From: Burkholderiaceae bacterium
Lineage (GTDB): Bacteria; Pseudomonadota; Gammaproteobacteria; Burkholderiales; Burkholderiaceae_D
Assembly: GCA_036561005.1 (NCBI GenBank)
Contig: DATBQE010000239.1
Span: 885 to 64,884 of the forward strand
Reading direction: 5' to 3'
Length of the DNA stretch: 64,000 nucleotides
Shown: in pieces, positions 1,447 through 22,196 of the stretch
How positions within the stretch are numbered: the stretch's first letter is position 1
How the letters are laid out: each line of letters starts with the position of its first letter
Translations under genes and position numbers: made by a program
Notes under the pieces: model-generated
Databases searched by the model: none
What the model saw: the letters and a program-made list of their open reading frames with translations, nothing else
Told to the model about the DNA's origin: nothing

Positions 1447-2241
1447 TTAATTTTCCGTGCGAAAGCGCGCCGGTGTCATGCCGACGACGCGCTTGAATGC
1501 GCGGCTGAAGTGGGCCTGGTCGTGGAAGCCGCATTCGATGGCAATGTCGGCGATGGGCTGGCGCGTTTTGGCAAGCAGTGCAGCGGCACGCCGGAGGCGG
1601 ATTTCACGCGCATGCGCGGCGATCGATGTGCGGTAGGTCTGCCGATAGGCCTGGGCCAGTTCGGCCGGGTGCCGTGACAGCGCGCGCGCCATCTCGTCGA
1701 GCGTGAAATGCTCGGTCGCACTTTCGACGAATTCGCGCGCCTGAACAAGCCATGGCGCAATCACCGGCGAGCTGTCGCGCAGTGCGCGGCCAAAGCCGGC
1801 AAAACACTCCAGCACCAGGCCATCGAGGGCGATGCGCGAGAACGCGTCGTCATGCCTGCATTCGTCGACAAAGCGCTGTGCGAGGCCGGACAGCGCCGCG
1901 CTTTGCACGCACGGCGCCTCGTTCAAGCGCGTGCGGTCGGCGAGAAATTCGAGCGCCTGCGGCGTCGGCCGAATCGTCAGCTTGCGTGCGCCACTGCGCG
2001 AAATGCGCTGCGAATGCTCCTCATGCGGCGGGCAATAGAGCGCATGCCCGGCCGTGTGCAAGCCGGCACGCCCGCGCGTCTTTTCTTCATATTCGCCGCC
2101 CACGACCAGACAGATCAACGGCACGTCGTGATGGTGCGCCGCCATCGAATGCAAGGGCGTCCACTGCGAAATCGTGGCGCTATCCGCCCAGGAAGAACCC
2201 GACATTTCCAACGCGCGAAGCACGATCTTCCCCGATTGCAT
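1447..2241 (-). CDS. AraC-family transcriptional regulator
   Basis: 264-aa ORF. The C-terminus IADIAIECGFHDQAHFSRAFKRVVGMTPARFR is the classic AraC/XylS second HTH. The N-terminal half is cupin-like. Confidence 0.85.
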   Translation of the reverse strand: MQSGKIVLRALEMSGSSWADSATISQWTPLHSMAAHHHDVPLICLVVGGEYEEKTRGRAGLHTAGHALYCPPHEEHSQRISRSGARKLTIRPTPQALEFLADRTRLNEAPCVQSAALSGLAQRFVDECRHDDAFSRIALDGLVLECFAGFGRALRDSSPVIAPWLVQAREFVESATEHFTLDEMARALSRHPAELAQAYRQTYRTSIAAHAREIRLRRAAALLAKTRQPIADIAIECGFHDQAHFSRAFKRVVGMTPARFRTEN

Positions 2242-2413
2242 TGCTTGATCTCCTGTATGTGCCCGTTGCCCGCAGACTGGTGCCTTTATTGCCGGGGCAC
2301 AATGCGGTTGCGCAACCGATGAACAGGCACGCTATCTGCATGTGCATGGAATGCTGCCAGCAAATGCGGGTTTAGGCAAGCCCAGTGCCGCGCAAAGTCG
2401 ATTGTTCAAAATG

Positions 2414-2890
2414 CTATCGAAATTTCTCCGCTTCGGTTCGCATGATCCGATCTTCGCGAACGATCAATTTATCGGCATGGGCGAGCAAACGATCTATCTT
2501 TGCATCTTTCGCGCATTCTGGCGTGATCGTCGCCTTTTCAATTGGTTTCCCTCGCAGGCACTGGAGCAGGGCAAGCACGTCGTTCAATTTGGCCGCCTGG
2601 ATGTCGCTAAATTCATCCGACATCACGAGGGCTCTAACGATCTTCATTTTCGTTTGCTCCGAATAGCCGTCGGCCAAACCTCGCGCATCGAGCTCGGGAA
2701 TCATGCCGTTTTCCGACATGCGCCTTAATGCCTTGATCTTTTCCCAAACCAACATGGGTTGCGTTAATGCCGGCTCGGCAGGCGAGGCGCCGCCATCCGT
2801 TTCCGACGCAATCGTCGTGCCCGATGCCAGACCGGCCATCAGAAGCGAAAATAAAATCAGGCGCTTTCGTATCATGGTTGCAATGTGCAT
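2414..2890 (-). CDS. hypothetical secreted protein
   Basis: 158-aa ORF with an N-terminal signal-like segment MIRKRLILFSLLMAGLASGTTIASE. I recognise no family. Lower GC than the flanking core genes. Confidence 0.45.
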   Translation of the reverse strand: MHIATMIRKRLILFSLLMAGLASGTTIASETDGGASPAEPALTQPMLVWEKIKALRRMSENGMIPELDARGLADGYSEQTKMKIVRALVMSDEFSDIQAAKLNDVLALLQCLRGKPIEKATITPECAKDAKIDRLLAHADKLIVREDRIMRTEAEKFR

Positions 2891-3203
2891 TTTCCGGGTT
2901 TCGCTATCTAATCAATTTGCCGTGTTCCACATGATCTGCCCGAGGCTTGCCAAGCGCGAGTGCTTTTGGAATCGGCGCCAGGGAGCATGGGTGGTCGCGC
3001 TCTTCTCGCTCACCCAGCCCGTCGGCGTTCGCCGCTTTATGGCAATGCGGCATGGAAGGAAATCTGTGTAGCAATGGCACCATAACATTCCATACGGCAT
3101 CGGGCAACCGGATGCGCCGCAGCTTGGCTAAGTGTGTTGCCGAACAGAACGCGTGCCAATACCGCCACATAATGATCGTTCACAATCACAACGGAGAACG
3201 GCC

Positions 3204-3611
3204 ATGATCACAAACAATCCTCTCAAGCTCAGCTTGACCATTGCCGCTTTCGCAGTGCTGGGCGCCTTGTCGGCGACAGCCACCGCGCAAAGCAACGAAT
3301 ATCGCCAGGGCTACGACCAAGGCTACCGTGACCACGCGGAAGGACAAGGCCAGCCGAATCATGAAGGACGGATCATTATTGAAGAAGCACACTACGGCTC
3401 GCGCGAAGGCGGTTTCTGCGATCCACGCGAATCGATCCAGCGTGCAATCGGCTGGCGCCGCCACGCCGACATCCGTGCAGACAATCAATTGTGCGGCGAC
3501 CCGGCACCCAACCACGTCAAGCACCTGGAAGTGCGCTACCGCTGCGGCAACAGCCAGACGGCGCGCGCCGAGACACCGGAAAATACAGTATTGGCGCTGA
3601 GTTGCCAATAA
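3204..3611 (+). CDS. hypothetical secreted cysteine-containing protein
   Basis: Internal ATG (Met25 of track ORF 3132..3611) preceded by GGAGA. Signal peptide MITNNPLKLSLTIAAFAVLGALSATATAQS. The mature part carries 4 Cys. Confidence 0.5.
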   Translation: MITNNPLKLSLTIAAFAVLGALSATATAQSNEYRQGYDQGYRDHAEGQGQPNHEGRIIIEEAHYGSREGGFCDPRESIQRAIGWRRHADIRADNQLCGDPAPNHVKHLEVRYRCGNSQTARAETPENTVLALSCQ

Positions 3612-3702
3612 TGACGTCCATCTCATCACACCTGCGCCGCGCGCGGGTGTGATGGTAACGTGAACAATAGTCACGTCGTGTGGATTGTGTGATCGCGCGC
3701 AA

Positions 3703-4308
3703 CTAAGACCGTTTTTTGGGCGCTGTCGCAGCCTGCATGACGATTATTAGTGTTCGATGATAGCGCGCATTATCTATCGCTCGAACGCCCGTTGCTGAAC
3801 TTTGACGGGCGGTTGGGGGATTGTTTGGCGCGCGATCGGATGGCATGTATACGCCCCGCCCCTGTTTCGAACAATGGGCCGCGCGGGATGCAAGCGCAGT
3901 AGCGCAAACAATTTTGCCCGGGCGTATGCGGTCAATCGCTATTTGCATGCTGAATATGCGATATAACGTATTTGAAGCCGTTGCGTAAGCAATTGCTGCG
4001 CGTTGCACCTCCTCATGTCCCGGCCTATTGTCGTCCGACGTACCTGAGATATTGCGTTCAATCCGCGCACAAAATTTAATGTCCGCAGCGTCAACGCCGG
4101 GAAACCACTTTCCGTAGCCGTTGACGCTCAAGCAGTGCGGCTGCCCATGCGCCAACGCATTCGCAGCGTCTTGCTCTGGGTGCGCGAGATTGAACTGCAG
4201 GAATTCAAGGTCGGATACGACACCTTCCCGGGCACCGGCAAATTGAGGCGTAAGCGTCATCAGGAGGAAGCCGACCGGGACCAGCCTTGCAATTGAATAT
4301 GTTTTCAT
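3703..4308 (-). CDS. hypothetical secreted protein
   Basis: 201-aa ORF with N-terminal MKTYSIARLVPVGFLLMTLTPQFAGA signal-like sequence. No recognisable family. Confidence 0.45.
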   Translation of the reverse strand: MKTYSIARLVPVGFLLMTLTPQFAGAREGVVSDLEFLQFNLAHPEQDAANALAHGQPHCLSVNGYGKWFPGVDAADIKFCARIERNISGTSDDNRPGHEEVQRAAIAYATASNTLYRIFSMQIAIDRIRPGKIVCATALASRAAHCSKQGRGVYMPSDRAPNNPPTARQSSATGVRAIDNARYHRTLIIVMQAATAPKKRS

Positions 4309-4371
4309 GAAAGTTTTGGCACTGGGTTGGCGATCAATTGCAAGCTACCAGGCGTTCAATCTTAGTTCATC

Positions 4372-4770
4372 CTACGGGTCATATTGCTCGACGCGACCAT
4401 CCGACATAACAAGCGTCCATCTTCCCCGGAACGACCTGCGCATGTAAGGCGTGCTTGAACCGTCTTCATTGATCCGGTCCCAGAGTCTAGCGTTTCGCCG
4501 GATGTAGGTTTCTCGGCACGTTGGACATTGAAAGTAACTATGCCGCGATGCGAAGGCCACCAACGCCCATTGCGTAAATGCAGTACCGCAACCACACGGA
4601 GGATACGCCTGCAACTGACGCGAGGCAAGCCAAAGACAGCACCACATCAACATTGCGCCGATGAATCCGCCAAGGAGCGCGCCATCACCATCGGCAGCCT
4701 TCACACCCAATAGGATGCCGGCGATGGCGGAACAAAATATCGCGAAAAATTCGATTCTCTTTCTGATCAT
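4372..4770 (-). CDS. hypothetical membrane protein with C-terminal CxC...CxxC zinc-ribbon-like motif
   Basis: 132-aa ORF with two hydrophobic helices (FFAIFCSAIAGILLGV and GGFIGAMLMWCCLWLA), followed by PPCGCG...FQCPTCRETY. Confidence 0.45.
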   Translation of the reverse strand: MIRKRIEFFAIFCSAIAGILLGVKAADGDGALLGGFIGAMLMWCCLWLASRQLQAYPPCGCGTAFTQWALVAFASRHSYFQCPTCRETYIRRNARLWDRINEDGSSTPYMRRSFRGRWTLVMSDGRVEQYDP

Positions 4771-4889
4771 ATTTTTTGCGCGTGGACCATGTCAATTCGA
4801 AAGGATATTAGATATTTATTCGGTCAAAAACCATGCGCCATCATTTCCGCCAGACTACCAGAAATATTGCATACAATTGCTTTCTTCGG

Positions 4890-4918
4890 CAAAAGGCAAA
4901 AAGTGGCTGCTTTTCGCC
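4890..4918 (-). terminator. candidate intrinsic terminator after the 4976..5245 gene
   Basis: On the minus strand, GGCGAAAAG-CAGCCA-CTTTTTGCC (9-bp stem with one mismatch; plus coordinates 4895-4918) is followed by TTTTG. Confidence 0.4.
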
Positions 4919-4975
4919 ATTGATAAATAAAACCATCGCTGCTTGTTGCGCGTTTCAATCAACACTCAGCCCGCG

Positions 4976-5245
4976 CTAATGTCCGCCCCCATCATGTCCG
5001 CCACCACCGGCATCATTTGGTTCCTGCGGTACGAAAAAATTGTCGCTGTGGCGCGGCGGCTTGCGTTCGCTCTGCAGAATCAAATGACAACAGAGAGCGC
5101 CGAACAGAGGAACAAACCAAATGATAAGAAGCTGGAGGAGCTGTTGAACCCGCTCGTATTCATCCGCGCGAAAAATAATGACGGATACATAGACCTGGTA
5201 TATGACCAAGACTAGTGCACAGCCAACGTATACGCGTTCATTCAT
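4976..5245 (-). CDS. small two-helix membrane protein (PLDc_N-like WFxPxxG motif)
   Basis: ATG at Met5 of track ORF 4976..5257, preceded by GAGAGG. Contains VGCALVLVIYQVYVSVIIF and LLIIWFVPLFGALCCHLIL, with a Gly/His-rich tail GGGGHDGGGH. Confidence 0.45.
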   Translation of the reverse strand: MNERVYVGCALVLVIYQVYVSVIIFRADEYERVQQLLQLLIIWFVPLFGALCCHLILQSERKPPRHSDNFFVPQEPNDAGGGGHDGGGH

Positions 5246-5639
5246 GATGCCTCTCAAAATTGTTTAATCTGTGCACGATTAAACGCGCGTCTGACCAACC
5301 GCTTTTGCCGGCTGGTGATCGTAGCGTAGAGGGCTACGGCCAGAGCCATGTGCTTGGTTCGTTCGCAGCCTCGTGTGATCGGGCACTAGTAGTAGCAGGG
5401 CCGTCCGCATGCCAAGCCGGTGCTGATGATCGAGAATCGCAGCTTGCCGGAGGAGCGAATTCTGCGGTTGACGCGGAAGAATTGAAGAAAGGGCTTACGG
5501 GATTCACCGGGGCGGTGCTCGTCATCATCGGCAGAGCGATGGCGCTACCTTTGCCTGCTTGACGGAGGGCAGCGCCACTTCGGTTTGGCGCATGGAAGGA
5601 CAGCGTCAGGCTGCCTTGCCGCAAGGATCTGGCAATACC

Positions 5640-6761
5640 TTACGATGCCGTCGTGACCGCCTGCTTTTCATAAGTGAAAAAGGAATCCGGCGTGAGCGGA
5701 TCGAGCCTGTTCAGGCTTAAAAAGTGTTGGTAGCTGTCGGATTCAAGGTAGTCCGCGTAGCGTAATGTTTGCGCGCCGTCTGCAGTCTCCATCCCGGCAA
5801 GGTAGCGGCAAAACGTATCGAGCATCAACAAGCTCGGGTCGATGTCTTCCTTCCACAAAAACTGGCCGGCCTCGTTGATCTCCAAAAAAACGTAGTCGCC
5901 ATTCTTGTTGACGACCAGATCGATGCAGCCGAAAGCCAAATTCAAATTGCGGCACAACTGCAGGCAACGCTCCTCGATCACCTGCGGCAAGATGGTTGCC
6001 CGTAAGGGTGTCTTGCCTAGTATGCCGTCGTAGCGCCAGTCGATGGATTGCCCGTCTTTTTGACTGTCTATCGCTGCCGCCAGAACCTTCCGACCGATGA
6101 CGGTAACGCGCAACTCATAGGCTTTCTCGACCAATTCCTGAAAAATGCCCGGACAGCTGCGTATTGCATCTTCGTGCTGCAAGTCACTTTCAGTAAGCGC
6201 GGCAGTTTTCAGAACCACGGCAGAATCGTCTTCCGTGATCCACCCGCCCGGACGAAACGCCTTGTAGATGATTCTTCCCGAGTGCTTCCTGAAAAACGCG
6301 ATCACTTGATGGTAATCGTTGCCGACCATGGTGTCCGGAATGGTGAAACCTGCCTTCTTCGCTTCGCGTAATTGAACGGTTTTTATGCGGGCGCGACGCG
6401 CCGGGCCGGATGGATTGACGTGGAGCGTATGTTCATGATCAAGAGAGTCGATCGCATTGTCGATGAATTCGTCCGATTCGCGCGCGATGACTTTCAGATC
6501 ACCGGGGTGACTGCATGGCATGGCAAGCGGTGTTCCTCGTCGCCTGTGCCATATCACATCAAAAGGCCCCGCGATGTCGCTGCCGCCGATATTGAGGCTC
6601 ATCGATGGCCCGTCTTCCATGCCCAAATGCAGGCACCCGCTGTCGCGGATGGGGAAGTCGGATGTATCCCATATGGTTGCGGCACAATCGAGCTGGCGCA
6701 ATCCCCACATCACCGCCGCGGCGTGTGCGTCGTCTTTTTTCGATACCAATAATATTTTCAT
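5640..6761 (-). CDS. ATP-grasp ligase of the ribosomal-peptide maturase type (MdnB/MdnC, MvdC/MvdD-like)
   Basis: 373-aa ORF. It begins MKILLVS like the microviridin ligases. It has KTVQLREAKKAGFTIPDT, ELRVTVIGRKVLAAAID, IDWRY and GCIDLVVNKNGDYVFLEINEAGQFLW, which match my memory of the MdnC/MvdD C-terminal ATP-grasp motifs (..yGaiDfi.t.dGeyvFLEvNp.GeW.w). It lies 88 nt downstream of a precursor-like sORF. Confidence 0.75.
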   Translation of the reverse strand: MKILLVSKKDDAHAAAVMWGLRQLDCAATIWDTSDFPIRDSGCLHLGMEDGPSMSLNIGGSDIAGPFDVIWHRRRGTPLAMPCSHPGDLKVIARESDEFIDNAIDSLDHEHTLHVNPSGPARRARIKTVQLREAKKAGFTIPDTMVGNDYHQVIAFFRKHSGRIIYKAFRPGGWITEDDSAVVLKTAALTESDLQHEDAIRSCPGIFQELVEKAYELRVTVIGRKVLAAAIDSQKDGQSIDWRYDGILGKTPLRATILPQVIEERCLQLCRNLNLAFGCIDLVVNKNGDYVFLEINEAGQFLWKEDIDPSLLMLDTFCRYLAGMETADGAQTLRYADYLESDSYQHFLSLNRLDPLTPDSFFTYEKQAVTTAS

Positions 6762-6791
6762 CTGGCCGGACGGTCGAAATTGATTGTCGAT

Positions 6792-6827
6792 CGGAACCTG
6801 CCGCCCATGAGAGGACGGACAGGTTCG
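6792..6827 (-). promoter_or_regulatory. intercistronic stem-loop between precursor sORF and ATP-grasp gene
   Basis: GAACCTG (6794-6800) pairs with CAGGTTC (6820-6826), and CCG pairs with CGG next to it with one bulge. The loop is 12 nt. There is no U-tract, so it looks like an mRNA stabiliser/attenuator rather than a full terminator. Confidence 0.35.
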
Positions 6828-6849
6828 AGGCTAACTAACTACGCCGAAT

Positions 6850-7020
6850 TTATTGCGACTCATCCATTGTGGTGGATTTCCACTTGCCGGTAGTTTTGTC
6901 GTAAGTGCCGACAACCGTTTGAATGCCGCCGGCAACCATGGATGCCTCTTCGGCGCTGATTTCGCGACCGACTGTACGACCCAAAATGCGCGTTGTTTCT
7001 TCAGTTTGCTTAGTTTGCAT
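6850..7020 (-). CDS. 56-aa RiPP precursor peptide (double-glycine leader + graspetide-like core); absent from ORF track
   Basis: My translation of the minus strand is MQTKQTEETTRILGRTVGREISAEEASMVAGG/IQTVVGTYDKTTGKWKSTTMDESQ*. GGAG sits 6 nt upstream of the ATG (plus CAT 7018-7020). The stop is TAA (plus TTA 6850-6852). The leader fits the double-glycine consensus (hydrophobic at -4 and -12, Glu at -8, GG at -2/-1). The gene sits between a C39 ABC exporter and an ATP-grasp ligase. Confidence 0.65.
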   Translation of the reverse strand: MQTKQTEETTRILGRTVGREISAEEASMVAGGIQTVVGTYDKTTGKWKSTTMDESQ

Positions 7021-7181
7021 TGACTACTCCGTTACGAAAATTGGCCGTAATGTTCCACGCTCGCCCGACCGGCCAAAAAAATCGGACAAGCAACAACTCT
7101 GTAAAATCTCCGGGCGCGCGAAACGCGGGCCGGGGAATTGAGCAGCCGAACTATGCACTGCTCTCCATCGGGCAAGCTTCA

Positions 7182-9410
7182 TCACGCGCTCTCGGCAACG
7201 CCTGCTTCCGGCGCCTTTCTCAGATCCCTGACAATTTCGCCGTCAACCAGTTCGACAATCCTCTCGGCCGAGTGAATGGTTTCGGGCCGGTGCGCAACGA
7301 TGACCCTCGTCAGCGACAATGCGCCAATCGCCCGATTCACTTCCACCTCTCTCGTCACGTCAAGGTGACTCGTCGCTTCATCCAGAAACAGGATTTGCGG
7401 CCGCTTGTACAAGGCGCGTGCCAGCAATATTCTTTGCTTTTGCCCGCCCGACAGGCTATTGCCCATGTCGCCGATCAGGGTCTGGTACCCCATAGGCATC
7501 GATTTGATATCACCTGCAATCGCGGCCATCCTGGCGCATTCTTCTATGCGTTCCCGATCGGCCTGCAGATCGAAGAAGCAGATGTTGTCGGCGATGGAGC
7601 CGCTGAGCAGCTGGTCGTCCTGCATGACGGCGCCGATCAGCGCACGGTAATTTCGCTGGCCGAGCCGCGCCAGTGAAATGCCGCCGATCAAGACCTCGCC
7701 CTCGCTCGGCGACAGCAATCCCAGCAATAACTTGAGCAAGGTCGTCTTGCCGCAGCCGGAGGCGCCGACAAGCGCCAGCGATTCCCCCTGGCGGATGTGC
7801 AAGTTGAGATTTTTGATGATCCACGGCTCTTGCTCCGAATAGCGGAACGAGAGATTGCGCACTTCGATGCCGGTATCGCCGATCTCCTGCCGGGCCGGCG
7901 GAAGGACAGGAGAACCGGACACGCCTTGCGCCCCGTCCGTCTCCCGGCGCGCCCCTTCCTGCGGCGTCAGAACGATATCCGCCAGACGCTCACCTTGCAG
8001 CGACAGCATTTTCAATTCCTGCCACTTGTCGATCAATGAATAAATGCGGGTGGTGAACGTGATTTTGTAGGCGATGAAGGCATACAGCATACCGACCGAA
8101 AAGACGTTGCCCATCACCAGCAGCGCGCCCAGCCAGATGATGAGAATGTTTTCCGCGCCCGCGATCAAGGTTTGGCCTGCAGTAAACGCGAGTGTGATTT
8201 TTTGCGTAACGATGCTGCGGTTGACAGCCGCCGCGAGCGCATTAAGCCAGCGCGAGCGGCGTTCATCTTCATGATTGAACAGCTTGATCGTCTGGATACC
8301 GCGTATGGATTCCAAAAAAAGACTTTGTTCCCTTGCCTGCAGGCTGATCTGTTCCTCCGTGGCGCGCCGCAACGGCCGGTACATGACCCAGCGCAGCAAT
8401 CCATAAAGCGCAATCGAAAGAAGCACAATCATTGCCAACGACACGCTGTAGATGAACAGCATTGTCAGCGTGGTGACGGCCAACAGACCGTCGAGCAGGG
8501 CCTCGACAAAGCCGATGGAAAGCGTGTGTTGAATCGCCTGGATGGCATTGAAGCGCGAAACCACATCGCCCAGGTGCCGCTTCTCAAAATAATCCATGGG
8601 CAGTCGCAGCAGGTGCGTAAACACATTGCCGACCCATTGGAAATTGAGGTGGGTGCTCATGTACAGTACCGTCCAGGAGCGAAAAACCCCGAGCGCGGTC
8701 TGCACCAGCAGCAGCAATCCGAAACCCAGCGCCAGCATCGCCAGCAGGCTGCGGTCCGCAGATAGAATCGCCGAATCGACCACCCACTGCATGAAAAAAG
8801 GCGTCACCAGCGCAAATGCTTCCAGGGCCAATGCCAGCAGCAGGATTTGCCCGATCGAAGGAAGCAGGCCGACAACTCGCCCGACCATTTCACTCAAGTG
8901 CAAGCGCTGCTTTTCCTGCTTGCGCTGAAAACCCGGCGTGGGGGTCAGTTCCAAGGCAATGCCGGTGAAACAGCGCGATACTTCTTCGAGCGCAATATCC
9001 AGCAAGCCTTTACCCGGGTCATGTATGAGGACGCCGGATACGGCGCCGGTGCGGGTCAAGACGACCTTTTTCAGGACCACGAAATGATTCATGTTCCAAT
9101 GCAGCACGCAAGGCGTGGCGACATGCTGCAACTCGTCAAGTTCGATGCGGATAGGGCGCGCCGCCATGTCCAATGCCGAGGCGATCTCAATCACGCTTTT
9201 TAGCGTGGCGCCGCGCAGGCTCAGGGCAAAACGCTGCCGCAAGCTGAGCAAATCCGTTTCATAGCCATGGTAGCCGGCAATCATTGCCAGGCAGGCCAAT
9301 CCGCATTCAGCCGCCTCGCTTTGCAGGATCATTGGCAATTTCCTGCCGAACCCGAAGTGCAATTTGCCGTGACTCAAAGACTGAAGCAAACTGTTGTGAT
9401 CACTGGCCAC
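7182..9410 (-). CDS. peptidase-C39-domain bacteriocin/microcin ABC exporter (PCAT, CvaB-like)
   Basis: 742-aa ORF with a GTG start. The N-terminal QSEAAECGLACLAMIAGYHG and HWNMNHFVVL are C39 Cys/His motifs, close to CvaB QTETAECGLACLAMICGHFG. It has six TM segments, Walker A GASGCGKTT, signature LSGGQKQR and Walker B ILFLDEATS. Confidence 0.9.
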   Translation of the reverse strand: MASDHNSLLQSLSHGKLHFGFGRKLPMILQSEAAECGLACLAMIAGYHGYETDLLSLRQRFALSLRGATLKSVIEIASALDMAARPIRIELDELQHVATPCVLHWNMNHFVVLKKVVLTRTGAVSGVLIHDPGKGLLDIALEEVSRCFTGIALELTPTPGFQRKQEKQRLHLSEMVGRVVGLLPSIGQILLLALALEAFALVTPFFMQWVVDSAILSADRSLLAMLALGFGLLLLVQTALGVFRSWTVLYMSTHLNFQWVGNVFTHLLRLPMDYFEKRHLGDVVSRFNAIQAIQHTLSIGFVEALLDGLLAVTTLTMLFIYSVSLAMIVLLSIALYGLLRWVMYRPLRRATEEQISLQAREQSLFLESIRGIQTIKLFNHEDERRSRWLNALAAAVNRSIVTQKITLAFTAGQTLIAGAENILIIWLGALLVMGNVFSVGMLYAFIAYKITFTTRIYSLIDKWQELKMLSLQGERLADIVLTPQEGARRETDGAQGVSGSPVLPPARQEIGDTGIEVRNLSFRYSEQEPWIIKNLNLHIRQGESLALVGASGCGKTTLLKLLLGLLSPSEGEVLIGGISLARLGQRNYRALIGAVMQDDQLLSGSIADNICFFDLQADRERIEECARMAAIAGDIKSMPMGYQTLIGDMGNSLSGGQKQRILLARALYKRPQILFLDEATSHLDVTREVEVNRAIGALSLTRVIVAHRPETIHSAERIVELVDGEIVRDLRKAPEAGVAESA

Positions 9411-10701
9411 TAAGCTTGCCTTTCAAACTGTACAGAGGTTCGAATACCCACTCCAGCAAAGAGCGACGGTCTTGCAGGATATCGGCGTCGAGATGCATGC
9501 CCGCCGTCAGCCCCTGCGCTTTGCCATAGGCGGTGACGGTTTGCTTGTTCAGTGCGACTCTTACCCGGTACATGCCATCGTTGTTCGCTGCGTCTGCCAG
9601 GCCGGCAGGAATGTCGCCGGGGGCCAGCGCCGTGCGCGATACGTCTTGCACCACGCCCTGGTATTGACCGAATTTCTGGTAGGGATAGGCCGCAAAGCGG
9701 ATCGATACTTTCTGCCCGGACTCGATAAAGCCGACGGCGCGACTTGGCACATACAGTTGCGCCTCCAGGTTGGCGTTCGCCGGCAAAATGGTCAGCAGCG
9801 TCTGGTTCCCGGCCATTTGGCCGGGATCGGCGAGGATTGCCGTCACGGTGCCGGCCTGCGGCGCGGTCAGATAGAACTGCCGATGTGCCTGCGTGCTGAC
9901 GGTTTGTTCCTCCAATTCCTGGGATTGACGTTCCAGCTGATTTTGGTCGCGCTGGTTTTTGCTGGGCAACGTGGCCAGCTCGCCTTGCGCGTTGCTCAAA
10001 TCGCGGGCCACGCCAAGACGACTGCGCTGCAAGACCTGCAGGCGACTTTGCTGATCCAGCATCTCGTCTTGTTTCTGCTGCAGTGCGATCGGTGAAATGA
10101 AATTCTTTTCGGCCAGTTGCTGATGACGCTGGAGCTGCGCCTGTGCCGAGGAAAGCCGCGATTGTTGCGTCGCAATTTCCTGGTCCAACTGAAGCAACTC
10201 TGCCTGCAGGCTTGCAATGCTGCGCGAAAGTTGCTCGGCCTGCTTGCCGGCGATATCGTTTTGATGCGCGCGCTCGTCCTGCAGGCTTTGCTGCCGCGCT
10301 CTGAGGCTGGCGAGGACGGCGGCGCTGCTGTCGATGCCCTTGGCGCCGGCCGTTTCGGAAACCGGCGCGAGTTTCAAATCGGTGGACAACGCAAACAACA
10401 CATCACCGGCTTGCACAACCTGGCCCTCTTTGACGCGCCGCTCCAGGATCACGCCGACCTGCGACGACTGGATTTTGATCAACCCGGCATCGGGTGTCAG
10501 CAAACCAATCGCCTGGGTGCGTTTGGTATATTGAGCCAGGCAGAGAAACATCAGCAATGTACCGGTGCTGATGAGTGCAAAAAGGGTGAGAAAACGGAAA
10601 GATGGCGGGCGTATCAGGACAATTTGCCCCAGCCATTGGTGCTGCTTTGCCTGCTGGACTTCTGCGCGAAAAAGCGGCGGCGGACTTGCGGCACTACTCA
10701 T
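9400..10701 (-). CDS. HlyD-family membrane fusion/secretion adaptor (CvaA-like)
   Basis: Single N-terminal TM (FRFLTLFALISTGTLLMFLCLA), a long Gln/Leu-rich coiled coil, and a C-terminal beta-barrel part. It overlaps the ABC gene start by 11 nt. I prefer the ATG at 10701 (MSSAAS...) over the TTG at 10713 used by the track. Confidence 0.85.
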   Translation of the reverse strand: MSSAASPPPLFRAEVQQAKQHQWLGQIVLIRPPSFRFLTLFALISTGTLLMFLCLAQYTKRTQAIGLLTPDAGLIKIQSSQVGVILERRVKEGQVVQAGDVLFALSTDLKLAPVSETAGAKGIDSSAAVLASLRARQQSLQDERAHQNDIAGKQAEQLSRSIASLQAELLQLDQEIATQQSRLSSAQAQLQRHQQLAEKNFISPIALQQKQDEMLDQQSRLQVLQRSRLGVARDLSNAQGELATLPSKNQRDQNQLERQSQELEEQTVSTQAHRQFYLTAPQAGTVTAILADPGQMAGNQTLLTILPANANLEAQLYVPSRAVGFIESGQKVSIRFAAYPYQKFGQYQGVVQDVSRTALAPGDIPAGLADAANNDGMYRVRVALNKQTVTAYGKAQGLTAGMHLDADILQDRRSLLEWVFEPLYSLKGKLSGQ

Positions 10702-10713
10702 CCAATATTCCAA

Positions 10714-10860
10714 GTCAAGTTAAATAAGTACCTTTTTTGATATACTAATCGATAACAAATGAAGTGAAGCAACTTATTACTCTTTAATTAAAAAAACAAA
10801 ACAAAACATCAATTTAGTGAATAAATTCAAATTAAGTTCTGAGTTTTTAATTCAGCCAAG
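10714..10860. promoter_or_regulatory. very AT-rich upstream region (probable promoter region of the export/RiPP operon)
   Basis: My direct count for 10741-10800 is 13 G+C in 60 nt, a sharp contrast with the surrounding GC-rich DNA. It lies immediately upstream of the first gene of the minus-strand operon. I could not place exact -35/-10 hexamers with confidence. Confidence 0.35.
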
Positions 10861-10988
10861 AATATCGTTCATATTTTGATGGCATATTTTCGCCCGGTCG
10901 TTGACGGCCCTACCCTTGACTGAGGCAATTGCACACACCCGCATTCTGGCGCGGCCTTCAGGGCAACGATGCGGCAGGCGATTGAACG

Positions 10989-11105
10989 CTAACTGGAATT
11001 GGGGCAATCTCGCGGCGTAAGCTGATGGACCAGCGACGTCGGATGCTCGCTGATGCGCTGCAAGACATCCCACACGCATAACCCGGTGCGAGGCTTTTGC
11101 GATGC
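10989..11105 (-). mobile_element. IS66-family transposase C-terminal remnant (degenerate)
   Basis: The minus-strand frame reads ...ASQKPRTGLCVWDVLQRISEHPTSLVHQLTPRDCPNSS*. DVLxRIxEHP followed by xxxxLxP resembles the conserved IS66 Tnp C-terminus (..WL.DVL.RI.EHP..RIDELLPWNW) as I remember it. Upstream the frame is broken by stops, so only a fragment remains. Confidence 0.35.
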
Positions 11106-11438
11106 GCGCGGATGGTGGGGCAACCTGGAAATTGGACACGTCTTGTCAAGCATGTGACCGCGCGCAGCTGAAGCTTTCGTGTCTGCGCACTATTCCAGCC
11201 TGCTTGACGCTTGTTTGCCCGCCTCCACGGCGTGCGTTGCGTGTCTGTCGGCCGAGGCATCCATGACATTGCATATTGCCCCAAACGCCGGAAAAATTCC
11301 CCTGCTCCATAGCCGTACAGTTGCCGTAAAAATCGGCGCGCTTGTGAAGGTGCCCGCCACCCAGCCTCGCTTGCCTCTATGACGCTGCTCTGCCACTGCC
11401 GCCTGGCTCCAGCCCCCCTTGCAAGAACCTGTTCGCGA

Positions 11439-19505: not shown

Positions 19506-22196
19506 ATGGCAAGAAGCTTTGTGCATACCGCTGCCGTTGCATTGCTTATATTTGGCACGGCATTCTCCCTCGGCGGATGCGGCGGCAATCCGGGCGAAGC
19601 GGCCGATGCGCAAAACAAATTGCAGGCCAGGCAACCCGGGCGCATGGCCAAACAGGCCGGCTCGCCGTATGCGTCCGCCGTGCAGGAACTCTATGTCGCC
19701 TATTTCGGCCGCCCCGCAGACCCGGCCGGCTTGACCAACTTCGCTGCGGCCCTGGCCGCCGCCAATGCGCCGGCTGACCTGCAAAGCCTCACCTCCGCCT
19801 ATTCGACCAACCAGGCGGTGCGCACGCTGATCGACAGCTTCGGCACCAGCAAGGAATCGCAAACTTTGTATGGCAGCGGCACGACGCAGGATTTTGTCAC
19901 TGCAGTGTTCAAAAACGTCCTTGGCCGGGCGCCGCAGCAGGCCGGGCTGAGCTACTGGTCGGATGCGATTGACAAGGGGTCGCTCAGCAAAGGCAATGCG
20001 GCGCTGGCCATCATGAACGGTGCGCTGACCAATACCACGGCGCAAGGGCTGATCGATGCACAACTGGTCAATAACCGGCTGGCTGTCGCGGCGAGCTTTA
20101 CCGCCCAAACTGCAAGCCAGGGGGCGACTTATGCCTACACCGGCGCCGGCGCGGCCGCCGCTGCGCGCGCCATGCTGAGCCAAGTGGACGGACAAACCCA
20201 GGTGGCGTCGTTCTCGCCGACGATTTCGACCACGATCACCGGCCTTCTGCACAGTGCACCCGGGGTATCGCTGCTGGCGGGCGATATTCGCCCCGGCAAC
20301 AATCAGAATGCGGCAGGCCCAATGGTGCGCGATAGCGTCGGCAATTTGTATGTGATCCACGATTACGTCATCGACAAAATCACGCCCGACGGAACCTTCA
20401 CGGTTTTTGCCGGCACTCCCAATGTCACGGGGTATGCCGACGGCACCGGCACAGCCGCAATGTTTAACTATCTCAATGGCATAGGGATCGACAGTCGCGA
20501 CAATCTTTACGTCTCCGACATGTACAACCACGTGATCCGCAAGATCACGCCGGCCGGTGTAGTGACAACTTTTGCAGGATCACAAATCCAACCCGGCAAC
20601 GCCGACGGCACGGGGGCGGCAGCGCAATTCGCCAATCCAGGCGCGATGGTGGTCGATGCTGCCGACAATATCTACGTGATGGACAATTCCTTGCGCAAGA
20701 TCTCGCCTGCCGGTGTGGTGACGACCGTCAATGGCTATGGCGGACCTTGCGGCAATATTGCTTTAGGATCATGCTTCGCACAAGTTGAAGCGATGACAAT
20801 GGACAGCTCCGGTAATCTCTATATCGCCGAAAGCTGGTTCAATACAGTACGCAAGATGACACGAGATGGCGCTGTCTCCATCATCGCCGGTGCACCCGGC
20901 GTACGCGGTATGACCGACGGCCCGGCAGCGAATGCATCTTTCGAACATCCACGAGCAATTGCCGTCGACAATGCAGGCAACCTATTCGTGGGTGATGGTG
21001 TTTACTATGATTTTGGCGCTCAATCGTTCAGCCCGGATCTTACGATACGCAAGATTTCGGTCGATGGAACTGTCTCTACAGTGGCGGGGGCCGCATCACC
21101 GTCCGGCGGATATGTCGACGGCCCGGCACAAATATCGCGCCTGGACGGCGCGTACGGCATGCTGTTCGACGCGCAAGGCAATCTCGTGTTTTGCGACGGC
21201 ATCGGCGCACTCCGCAAGCTGTCGCCGTCGGGAATCGTATCGACTGTCGCGGGTTTCTATGGATTCGTCGGCATTGCCGATGGACTCAGTGCGGCTGCCG
21301 GCTTCTACCAGCCCAAGGGCATTGTCGCCGACAGCGACGGCAACGCCTACGTGGTTGACAGCCGCAACGACACAATACGGAAGATCACGCCGGCAGGATA
21401 CGTGACCACGCTGGCGGGTACCGCGCAATTGGCCTTGTCCCGCGACGGTTCGCTCGCCGCCGCAACTTTTCTCAATCCTGTCGGGCTGGCGCGTGACGCA
21501 GGCGGCAACATGTATGTGACTGAAAACGGCAGCGTGCGCCGTATCAGCACAACAGGTACAGTCACGCAGTTGGCGACAGGGATCGACTTGACCATAGCCG
21601 GCAATCAATTTTATTTCTACAACCCATGCGGGATTGCAGTCGACCTATCCGGCAACGTCTATGCCACCGACACTACCATCAATGGCGTCATCAAGATCGC
21701 GCCGAACGGCACCGCTGCGCCGTTGGCAGGATTTTCTTCTATTGGCGGCTCGAATGATGGCACCGGCACCGCAGCGAGTTTCAAAAAGCCGAGCGGCATA
21801 GCGCTCGACGCCGCCGGCTACGCCTACGTGGCCGACACGGGCAACAACTCGATCCGCAAGATTTCACCGGCGGGCGTTGTCACAACCCTGGCCGGCAGCG
21901 CCGGCAATGCCGGCGCTGCAGACGGAGCAGGCAGCGCGGCAAGGTTCAATCAACCGATCGGCGTGGCGCTAGACCCCAGCGGCAACCTGTACGTGGCCGA
22001 CAGCGGCAATAACCTGATCCGCAAGATCACACCGGCAGGCGTGGTCAGCACAGTTGCCGGCACGACCAATGCCTACCGCACTATCCTCGGCCCCTTGCCC
22101 GCCGCGATCCAGAGCCCGCAATACCTGACCCTGGTCGGCGCCAAGACGCTGTACGTGACGGCTGCCAACGCCGTGGTACAGGTGAATTTGCCTTGA
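19506..22196 (+). CDS. DUF4214 + NHL-repeat lipoprotein (paralog 1)
   Basis: Met59 of the track ORF. MARSFVHTAAVALLIFGTAFSLGGCGG is lipobox-like. ELYVAYFGRPADPAGL is the DUF4214 signature. I count about 11 repeats of ..GxADGxGxAAxFxxPxGIAxDxxGNLYVADxxNxxIRKITPxG (NHL type). Confidence 0.8.
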   Translation: MARSFVHTAAVALLIFGTAFSLGGCGGNPGEAADAQNKLQARQPGRMAKQAGSPYASAVQELYVAYFGRPADPAGLTNFAAALAAANAPADLQSLTSAYSTNQAVRTLIDSFGTSKESQTLYGSGTTQDFVTAVFKNVLGRAPQQAGLSYWSDAIDKGSLSKGNAALAIMNGALTNTTAQGLIDAQLVNNRLAVAASFTAQTASQGATYAYTGAGAAAAARAMLSQVDGQTQVASFSPTISTTITGLLHSAPGVSLLAGDIRPGNNQNAAGPMVRDSVGNLYVIHDYVIDKITPDGTFTVFAGTPNVTGYADGTGTAAMFNYLNGIGIDSRDNLYVSDMYNHVIRKITPAGVVTTFAGSQIQPGNADGTGAAAQFANPGAMVVDAADNIYVMDNSLRKISPAGVVTTVNGYGGPCGNIALGSCFAQVEAMTMDSSGNLYIAESWFNTVRKMTRDGAVSIIAGAPGVRGMTDGPAANASFEHPRAIAVDNAGNLFVGDGVYYDFGAQSFSPDLTIRKISVDGTVSTVAGAASPSGGYVDGPAQISRLDGAYGMLFDAQGNLVFCDGIGALRKLSPSGIVSTVAGFYGFVGIADGLSAAAGFYQPKGIVADSDGNAYVVDSRNDTIRKITPAGYVTTLAGTAQLALSRDGSLAAATFLNPVGLARDAGGNMYVTENGSVRRISTTGTVTQLATGIDLTIAGNQFYFYNPCGIAVDLSGNVYATDTTINGVIKIAPNGTAAPLAGFSSIGGSNDGTGTAASFKKPSGIALDAAGYAYVADTGNNSIRKISPAGVVTTLAGSAGNAGAADGAGSAARFNQPIGVALDPSGNLYVADSGNNLIRKITPAGVVSTVAGTTNAYRTILGPLPAAIQSPQYLTLVGAKTLYVTAANAVVQVNLP

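Follow-up and report, generated by a model that had tools for sequence, protein, structure and literature searches.

A probable graspetide precursor with a double-glycine leader, encoded between a peptidase-containing exporter and an ATP-grasp ligase in a Burkholderiaceae genome

Does a small open reading frame lodged between an exporter gene and an ATP-grasp ligase gene specify a ribosomal peptide that the ligase cross-links, or is it one of many short frames that have no product? The question is raised by a locus of an uncultured Burkholderiaceae bacterium (assembly GCA_036561005.1, contig DATBQE010000239.1, positions 885 to 64,884), a stretch of 64,000 nucleotides which is called the window below and whose numbering is used for all coordinates unless another locus is named. 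The frame lies on the minus strand at 6850-7020 and encodes 56 amino acids (MQTKQTEETTRILGRTVGREISAEEASMVAGGIQTVVGTYDKTTGKWKSTTMDESQ), its ATG at 7020-7018 being preceded by a Shine-Dalgarno GGAG at 7030-7027 with a 6-nt spacer, exactly as a preliminary description of this DNA had recorded. Codons 1-32 (6925-7020, minus strand) constitute a leader that includes RILGRTVGREISAEEASMVAGG, within which RILGRTVGREIS is presumed to be the part recognised by the ligase and ISAEEASMVAGG the double-glycine signal for export and cleavage, while codons 33-56 (6853-6924) constitute the predicted core, IQTVVGTYDKTTGKWKSTTMDESQ, followed by the stop codon at 6850-6852. The preliminary description had termed this gene unannotated. 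That is correct as far as function is concerned, and no model of the Pfam and NCBIfam libraries matches the precursor; the coding sequence, however, had already been called in GenBank, where the identical 56-residue protein stands as hypothetical protein VIF60_24075 of a Burkholderiaceae metagenome-assembled genome, and the gene is likewise called on a Logan contig. Hence the precursor is functionally unannotated, yet not an uncalled gene.

Short frames are abundant here, with 213 ORFs of at least 30 residues in the first 16 kb of the window, and for this reason the coding status of the 56-residue ORF had to be tested by comparison. The same abundance is what speaks for regarding it as a chance ORF in GC-rich DNA that yields no product, as does the existence of an equally long mirror ORF on the plus strand (6853-7023). 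On the other side stand the ribosome-binding site, the conservation of the protein family and the fact that the gene was called by two independent pipelines. The leader is also kept in syntenic loci of Janthinobacterium and Undibacterium, with the stretch RILGRTVGREISAEEA near-identical in the window and in both of these genera, and with cores that are unrelated among the three. When the window is compared with the first Janthinobacterium copy (locus L001) over 16 leader codons, 10 are found to differ, all 10 synonymously, and 9 of the 10 nucleotide substitutions affect the third position of a minus-strand codon. The mirror ORF was rejected, because these third positions are the first positions of the plus-strand frame. 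In the core, a comparison with the copy at locus L170 from GTY onward shows identity at 10 of 18 residues, 7 of which are specified by different codons. Together the leader and core comparisons effectively refute the chance-ORF explanation, which we regard as having practically no probability, and they indicate that 6850-7020 is a real gene under purifying selection in leader and core alike. The preliminary description had proposed that conservation of the frame be sought in related loci, and the purely synonymous divergence of the leader from that of L001 provides it.

The precursor is the third of four minus-strand genes that form a cluster, in the order HlyD adaptor, C39-peptidase ABC exporter, precursor and ATP-grasp ligase. 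The first of these (9400-10713) encodes a membrane-fusion or periplasmic adaptor protein of the HlyD family, which matches the Pfam models HlyD_3 (E 3.4e-17), HlyD_D23 and Biotin_lipoyl_2 and the NCBIfam model type_I_hlyD (E 7.6e-41), and its stop overlaps the start of the exporter gene by 11 nt. The exporter (7182-9410) is a peptidase-containing ABC transporter (PCAT) that has a C39 double-glycine peptidase at its N-terminus in addition to transmembrane and ATPase domains (Peptidase_C39 1.7e-30, ABC_membrane 3.6e-38 and ABC_tran 3e-32 in Pfam), its best NCBIfam match being NHLP bacteriocin export ABC1 (4.6e-142). Its C39 domain, the adjacent domain to which the preliminary description had assigned cleavage, is closest to LahT150 (6mpz, 5.8e-22), and alignment with LahT150 and PCAT1 shows that QxxxxEC(G), NHFVVL and DP are kept. 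As the Gln, Cys, His and Asp positions are thus intact, this is a true peptidase domain rather than a degenerate C39-like one. The last gene (5640-6761, 373 residues) begins 88 nt downstream of the precursor on the same strand and is predicted to encode a graspetide synthetase, i.e. a ligase that forms macrolactones or macrolactams. In NCBIfam it matches MvdD (TIGR04184, 7.5e-49), GRASP_SAV_5884 (1.6e-48) and MvdC (5.1e-44), all below the curated trusted cut-offs, and among structures it matches MdnC (5ig9, 1.3e-33), CdnC (7mgv, 1.7e-30) and MdnB (5ig8, 3.8e-26). These matches identify it by homology as a ligase of the MvdD/MdnC type and support the graspetide reading that the preliminary description had advanced.

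The arrangement recurs beyond the window. The order HlyD, PCAT, precursor or precursors and ligase is also seen in L170, in L173 and in L001 of Janthinobacterium sp. CG_23.3, which has two precursors. In Undibacterium sp. Di27W (L003) precursor and ligase occur with no exporter within 8 kb, suggesting that the peptide goes with the ligase. Taking cluster, leader and core together, we consider it very probable that the ORF encodes a graspetide precursor, i.e. the precursor of a side-chain cross-linked ribosomal peptide, with the adjacent ligase as its modifying enzyme and the PCAT/HlyD pair as its route of export.

Counted back from Gly32 the leader carries I-12, S-11, E-9, E-8, V-4, G-2 and G-1, and a recount gave the same Ile, Glu, Val and GG positions as had been described earlier. 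The double-glycine pattern has GG (or GA/GS) at -2/-1, an acidic residue at -8 and hydrophobic ones at -4, -7 and -12; the leader fits it with V-4, I-12, E-8 and GG, and matches weakly only at -7, where it has Ala instead of the consensus Leu. A leader that fits this pattern, encoded directly after a PCAT/HlyD pair, could belong to an unmodified double-glycine bacteriocin, microcin or signalling peptide that the PCAT cuts and exports while the ATP-grasp enzyme acts elsewhere, and the greater conservation of the exporter genes than of the ligase between loci would agree with this. To trace how the leader is distributed we used an HMM, built from four leaders and iterated over the small ORFs of 168 loci that had been fetched through ligase homologues. 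It matched 124 small ORFs in 106 of the 168 ATP-grasp loci, 116 of them within 1.5 kb of the ligase and on the same strand. Leader ORFs thus adjoin the ligase in 106 loci, a count from loci fetched through the ligase, and some of these have no nearby exporter; this argues against an unmodified peptide, as does the dehydration of relatives with the same leader type by their ligase (PMC9576775). No conserved immunity gene was seen in the related loci, which is a further point against a bacteriocin-like peptide. In view of this and of the co-variation of leader and ligase described below, an unmodified product appears highly improbable to us.

The family so defined has the leader consensus TERILGRQLARELTAEELEKVSGG, and the GG site of the window aligns with the leader/core boundary of the 116 related precursors, whose leaders end in GG in 71 cases, in GA in 16 and in GS in 8. 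Across these precursors the leader is conserved and the core variable. The cores have a median length of 24 residues, which is also the length of the window core, and 94% of them have Asp or Glu within the last six residues; they are rich in Asp, Gly, Thr and Ser, with Lys making up 1.7% of residues. At least two Cys residues are present in 44% of the family cores (116 precursors, L004-L167), so that ester rings and disulfides may coexist in many of these peptides; that of the window is devoid of Cys. A separate observation concerns locus L169, where at 3541-6397 one ligase is flanked by five leader-bearing precursors with different Cys-containing cores, downstream of genes that are TauD-like and CmlA-like (beta-lactamase fold); it may represent a multi-precursor, further-tailored variant.

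To place the enzyme itself, 287 ligases were compared in a rough similarity network with EFI-style scoring, which is distinct from the published network and was built without the L. pneumophila reference ligase. At an alignment score of 70 the window ligase falls in a 205-member component that includes Legionella loci, and at a score of 80 in a separate 80-member subclade apart from them. This subclade is composed of Oxalobacteraceae isolates (Janthinobacterium, Undibacterium, Duganella and Pseudoduganella) and metagenomic sequences. Genome and metagenome scans with the ligase returned mostly distant relatives of 28-40% identity, only the one at L084 being close. Among the 17 precursors from 11 loci of the subclade, the leader has Val-Gly in 14 and Ile-Gly in 3, where the wider family has Leu/Val-Ala (RILG+xVG+E); the Gly of this pair, residue 18 in the window, is specific to the subclade. 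That the Val-Gly variant tracks the ligase subclade points to co-evolution of leader and enzyme, and this co-variation is the remaining argument against an unmodified peptide.

How does this precursor relate to graspetides that have been characterised? The nearest experimental parallel to the proposed graspetide precursor is found in Legionella pneumophila, whose group-8 precursors Gra-7A and Gra-7B were expressed and both found to be dehydrated three times, with cleavage by the C39 protease LahT150 localising the modifications of Gra-7A to the predicted core (Ayikpoe et al. 2022, PMC9576775). These are likewise short precursors with one ATP-grasp ligase and with a leader of the same family, R-[IT]-L-A-Y-K…SGG; their cores, in contrast, are unrelated to that of the window, which shows no resemblance to any of the collected Legionella cores, and the window ligase differs in belonging to its own 80-member subclade at score 80, with Val-Gly or Ile-Gly rather than Leu/Val-Ala leaders. 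On the leader HMM the Gra-7 leaders score 11-14 bits, a thatisin-like leader 24 bits and that of the microviridin precursor MdnA -1.4. Thatisin of Lysobacter antibioticus belongs to group 16 (Ramesh et al. 2021, as cited in PMC10849128 and PMC13097080). The same leader type as that of the window occurs in clusters 70, 75 and 859 of Makarova et al. 2022, with members from Xanthomonas, Legionella, Janthinobacterium HH01 and Lysobacter (PMC8939145). In our identification, the thatisin precursor is the cluster 859 sequence from Lysobacter antibioticus, given that numbering from the residue after GG puts Asp14-Pro15 at the published isomerising bond (PMC10849128). The thatisin leader, RPLARIAARELSLDEIAAISGG, accounts for the score of 24 bits, and its core too starts right after GG. 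The thatisin core (KGDSTHATGPNGDDPGDPDFL) is rich in Asp and Pro and does not resemble that of the window, and the thatisin-like ligase (L082) is only about 33% identical to the window ligase; with an alignment score of 43.6 the two are not linked at any threshold from 60 upwards. As the ligase is unlinked and a THATGPNGDDPGDPD-type core is absent, we rejected placement in the thatisin group (group 16).

The microviridins (MdnA with MdnC and MdnB; group 1) share with the window a ligase homologous over its full length to MdnC and, presumably, leader-dependent activation followed by the formation of esters between Thr/Ser and Asp/Glu. They differ in having two ligases, MdnC and MdnB, where the window cluster has one; no acetyltransferase is among the four genes of the cluster, and export and cleavage are predicted to be the task of a true C39 PCAT. 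The window precursor has neither the PFFARFL leader motif nor the TxKxPSDxxE/D core, and with both motifs absent membership of group 1 was rejected. A third comparison is with PCAT-processed double-glycine peptides (LahT/ProcA, ComA and PCAT1): the window leader resembles theirs in being hydrophobic at -4 and -12 and in having Glu at -8 and GG at -2/-1, and the C39 domain of the exporter is nearest to LahT150. Here the cargo is a predicted graspetide instead of a lanthipeptide or unmodified bacteriocin, and the leader has an additional upstream segment, RILGRTVGRE; to our knowledge no segment of this kind is part of the double-glycine consensus.

A Pro-h-h-x-h motif has been reported for about half of graspetide leaders (PMC8939145), and this motif is absent from the window leader. 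In the part of the text of the Makarova et al. supplements that was available, neither a RILGR leader nor a YD[KR]xTGK core was found, and the leader strings and genus names searched for in the supplements of the 2026 RODEO update were not found there. A survey from 2026 puts the number of predicted graspetides at 21,584, divided among 43 groups, and reports an association with NHLM-type peptidase exporters for groups 2, 8, 14, 16, 18, 20, 21 and 23, in which the two co-occur (PMC13097080). Given this co-occurrence in eight groups, the coupling of a graspetide to a peptidase exporter is an architecture already established. By its leader and gene content the window system is thus to be classed as a PCAT-coupled graspetide with a group-8/thatisin-type leader, a type of system already known.

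What is less common is the core. Its acids are D9, D21 and E22 and its candidate donors are T3, T7, T11, T12, S17, T18, T19 and S23 together with K10, K14 and K16, so that the three acidic acceptors and 11 potential donors tallied in the preliminary description were found again on recounting. For the predicted 24-mer the computed [M+H]+ is 2704.31, less 18.011 for each ring, giving 2686.30, 2668.29 and 2650.28 with one, two and three rings. Word-indexed protein searches, with the precursor or with the precursor and the L170 sequence, brought up nothing beyond the window protein and a single protein of Janthinobacterium. Four relatives of the core were nevertheless found. One is the uncalled ORF of L170, recognised in our own ORF scan of the fetched loci (GDIPVQHITGTYSKIDGHWISTTNDGQ); its locus has the gene order of the window and its ligase is 43% identical to the window ligase. 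The other three came from an exhaustive HMMER search: P0131 (VQCLSGVYDRHTGKYLGNDDASTVDA), which lies in the syntenic locus L173 and also in L174, P0126 (AQSLSGVYDRNTGKYKYPDDSTTSDA) and P0133 (AKVQTRIQHYDKKTGKKLEAEDD). Window and relatives share the pattern Q-x3-G-x-Y-D-[KR]-x-T-G-K…[ST]T-x-D, and the BLOSUM62 local score of the window core against that of L170 is 61, compared with 18.6±4.3 for shuffles, none of 5000 of which reached 61. As far as could be checked, this core family is rare, Lys-rich and uncatalogued.

In the five-way alignment Gln2, Tyr8, Gly13 and Asp21 are invariant and position 10 is basic throughout, with either Lys or Arg; Asp9, Thr12 and Lys14 are present in four of the five, L170 having Ser9, Asp12 and His14 instead, and Glu22 and Lys16 are not conserved. 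Accordingly aligned, Asp21 and Asp9 are the best-supported and likely acceptors, and Glu22 is predicted to be dispensable in this role. The three rings which the preliminary description had allowed as a maximum thus stand as an upper bound, with two conserved acceptor sites beneath it; likewise its 11 donors are all present as residues, but they are not equally plausible, since Lys is rare in family cores and there is only one ligase. On the same two grounds we consider esters more likely than Lys amides. The replacement of Asp9/Thr12 by Ser9/Asp12 in L170 hints that residues 9 and 12 are linked. This exchange has the appearance of an ester pair with reversed polarity, but it could just as well reflect that an Asp9-Lys14 lactam has been lost; moreover, it is a single event, in a copy that may be a pseudogene or an assembly error. 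The L170 precursor (4699-4883 in that locus) is uncalled. Compared with L173, the N-terminal part of its leader has a gap of 16 nt, with the result that the MNNVQ start codon no longer lies in frame; the gap may stem from faulty assembly of 4x long reads, or the copy may be a pseudogene. The preliminary description held that ring topology cannot be deduced from sequence; the alignment narrows the candidate topologies.

These core sequences also bear on whether the ligase might modify the peptide by a different chemistry, either forming only lactams between Lys and Asp/Glu or adding amino acids in the manner of RimK. The window core is Lys-rich, being one of only two among the 116 family cores with at least three Lys, and lactams occur in a Burkholderia graspetide whose core has TxxKxxDD repeats (PMC9576775). 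RimK-type models do match the window ligase, at only 1e-10 in NCBIfam, and the similarity to MvdD, MvdC and MdnC is about 40 orders of magnitude stronger. In addition, the core relatives conserve the Thr/Ser and Asp positions but not Lys14 (His14 in L170) or Lys16. Such a different chemistry is in our estimate unlikely, if a little less so than an unmodified peptide; having three Lys, which sets it apart from about 98% of family cores, the window core may all the same differ in chemistry from its relatives.

The loci L170 and L173 permit a further comparison within this core family. These are syntenic metagenome loci with the same metE/LysR flanks, and their products are 96.0% (HlyD), 96.4% (PCAT), 79.2% (ligase) and 47% (precursor) identical. 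With the exporter at about 96% and the ligase and precursor so much lower, the precursor-ligase cassette appears from these identities to diverge or be exchanged much faster than the export genes. It is conceivable, though in our judgement rather doubtful, that the five-member core family has a graspetide topology that is as yet undescribed, for instance a 9-12 ring of invertible polarity or a Lys lactam made by a single ligase, in a cassette that turns over far more rapidly than the exporter. If true, such turnover of precursor and ligase is what one would expect of a molecule that evolves in an arms race or in signalling.

The spacers on either side of the precursor have features of their own. 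That between exporter and precursor (7021-7181, minus strand) holds, besides the GGAG, an inverted repeat at 7043-7074 with the arms GGCCGG (7074-7069) and ACGGCC (7048-7043). A repeat of the form GGCC[GC]G-N18-22-ACGGCC occurs 20-30 nt upstream of the precursor ribosome-binding site in four loci (elsewhere at L001 7428-7457, L170 4644-4677 and L173 5946-5979), the rest of the spacer being unalignable; as a background, the pattern has 50 matches in 1.54 Mb when both strands are counted. The repeat may act as an operator or form an RNA stem. A scan of this spacer revealed no sigma-70-like promoter, and terminator-like matches in the region did not exceed shuffle expectation. Downstream, between the precursor stop and the ligase start, lies a 13-bp stem-loop lacking a U-tract (6794-6826, minus strand). 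The whole 94-nt precursor-ligase spacer folds with a minimum free energy of -30.4 kcal/mol (z -3.16 versus shuffles), and its centroid structure (-23.4 kcal/mol) consists of the 6794-6826 hairpin alone. Strong hairpins of unrelated sequence are present at the same position in L001, L003, L084, L164, L167, L170 and L173, some of them with U-tracts, such as the hairpin plus TTTTT of L170. Hairpins so placed in RiPP operons are typically intercistronic attenuators or stabilisers that raise the ratio of precursor to enzyme, and that at 6794-6826 is probably an attenuator or RNA-stabilising hairpin of this kind. No tRNA or Rfam family was detected anywhere in the 64-kb window.

Downstream of the ligase there is a 93-residue ORF (4976-5257, minus strand) that is predicted to form two hydrophobic helices and has a tail rich in Gly and His; on the Logan contig, a gene overlapping this ORF is called where the contig is cut off. 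Since the related loci lack the ORF, a role as a conserved immunity gene is improbable. The GC content is 0.47-0.60 at about 2000-11200 and 0.62-0.68 in the flanks, a difference that may mark an island acquired by horizontal transfer and comprising the gene cluster and several genes for small hypothetical proteins of secreted or membrane type.

From these elements a pathway can be proposed. The 56-residue precursor would be translated from its own ribosome-binding site, with the stem-loop after its stop codon probably allowing precursor RNA to outnumber ligase RNA. By homology to MdnC and CdnC, the ligase would recognise the conserved leader segment RILGRTVGRE and, at the expense of ATP, activate Asp or Glu side chains of the core as acyl phosphates, with Thr/Ser hydroxyls as the likelier and Lys amines as the less likely partners in ring closure; Asp21 and Asp9 would be the acceptors, Asp9 plausibly pairing with Thr12. 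The C39 domain, having its catalytic residues, would cut after Gly31-Gly32, and the released 24-mer would leave through the PCAT and the HlyD adaptor. What the peptide might do once secreted is a matter of speculation: microviridin and marinostatin prompt the idea of a protease inhibitor, with the invariant basic residue at position 10 (Lys10 in the window) as the specificity residue.

The window cluster does not reveal a new type of system, and it is the core sequence that is rare. For this graspetide cluster of an uncultured Burkholderiaceae genome the comparison delimits the precursor, its predicted cleavage site and a core of 24 residues, and it yields testable predictions, namely Asp21 and Asp9 as likely acceptors, residues 9 and 12 as a candidate pair and Glu22 as dispensable. 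That the exporter is conserved while ligase and core diverge bears on the substrate tolerance of the ligases and on peptide engineering.
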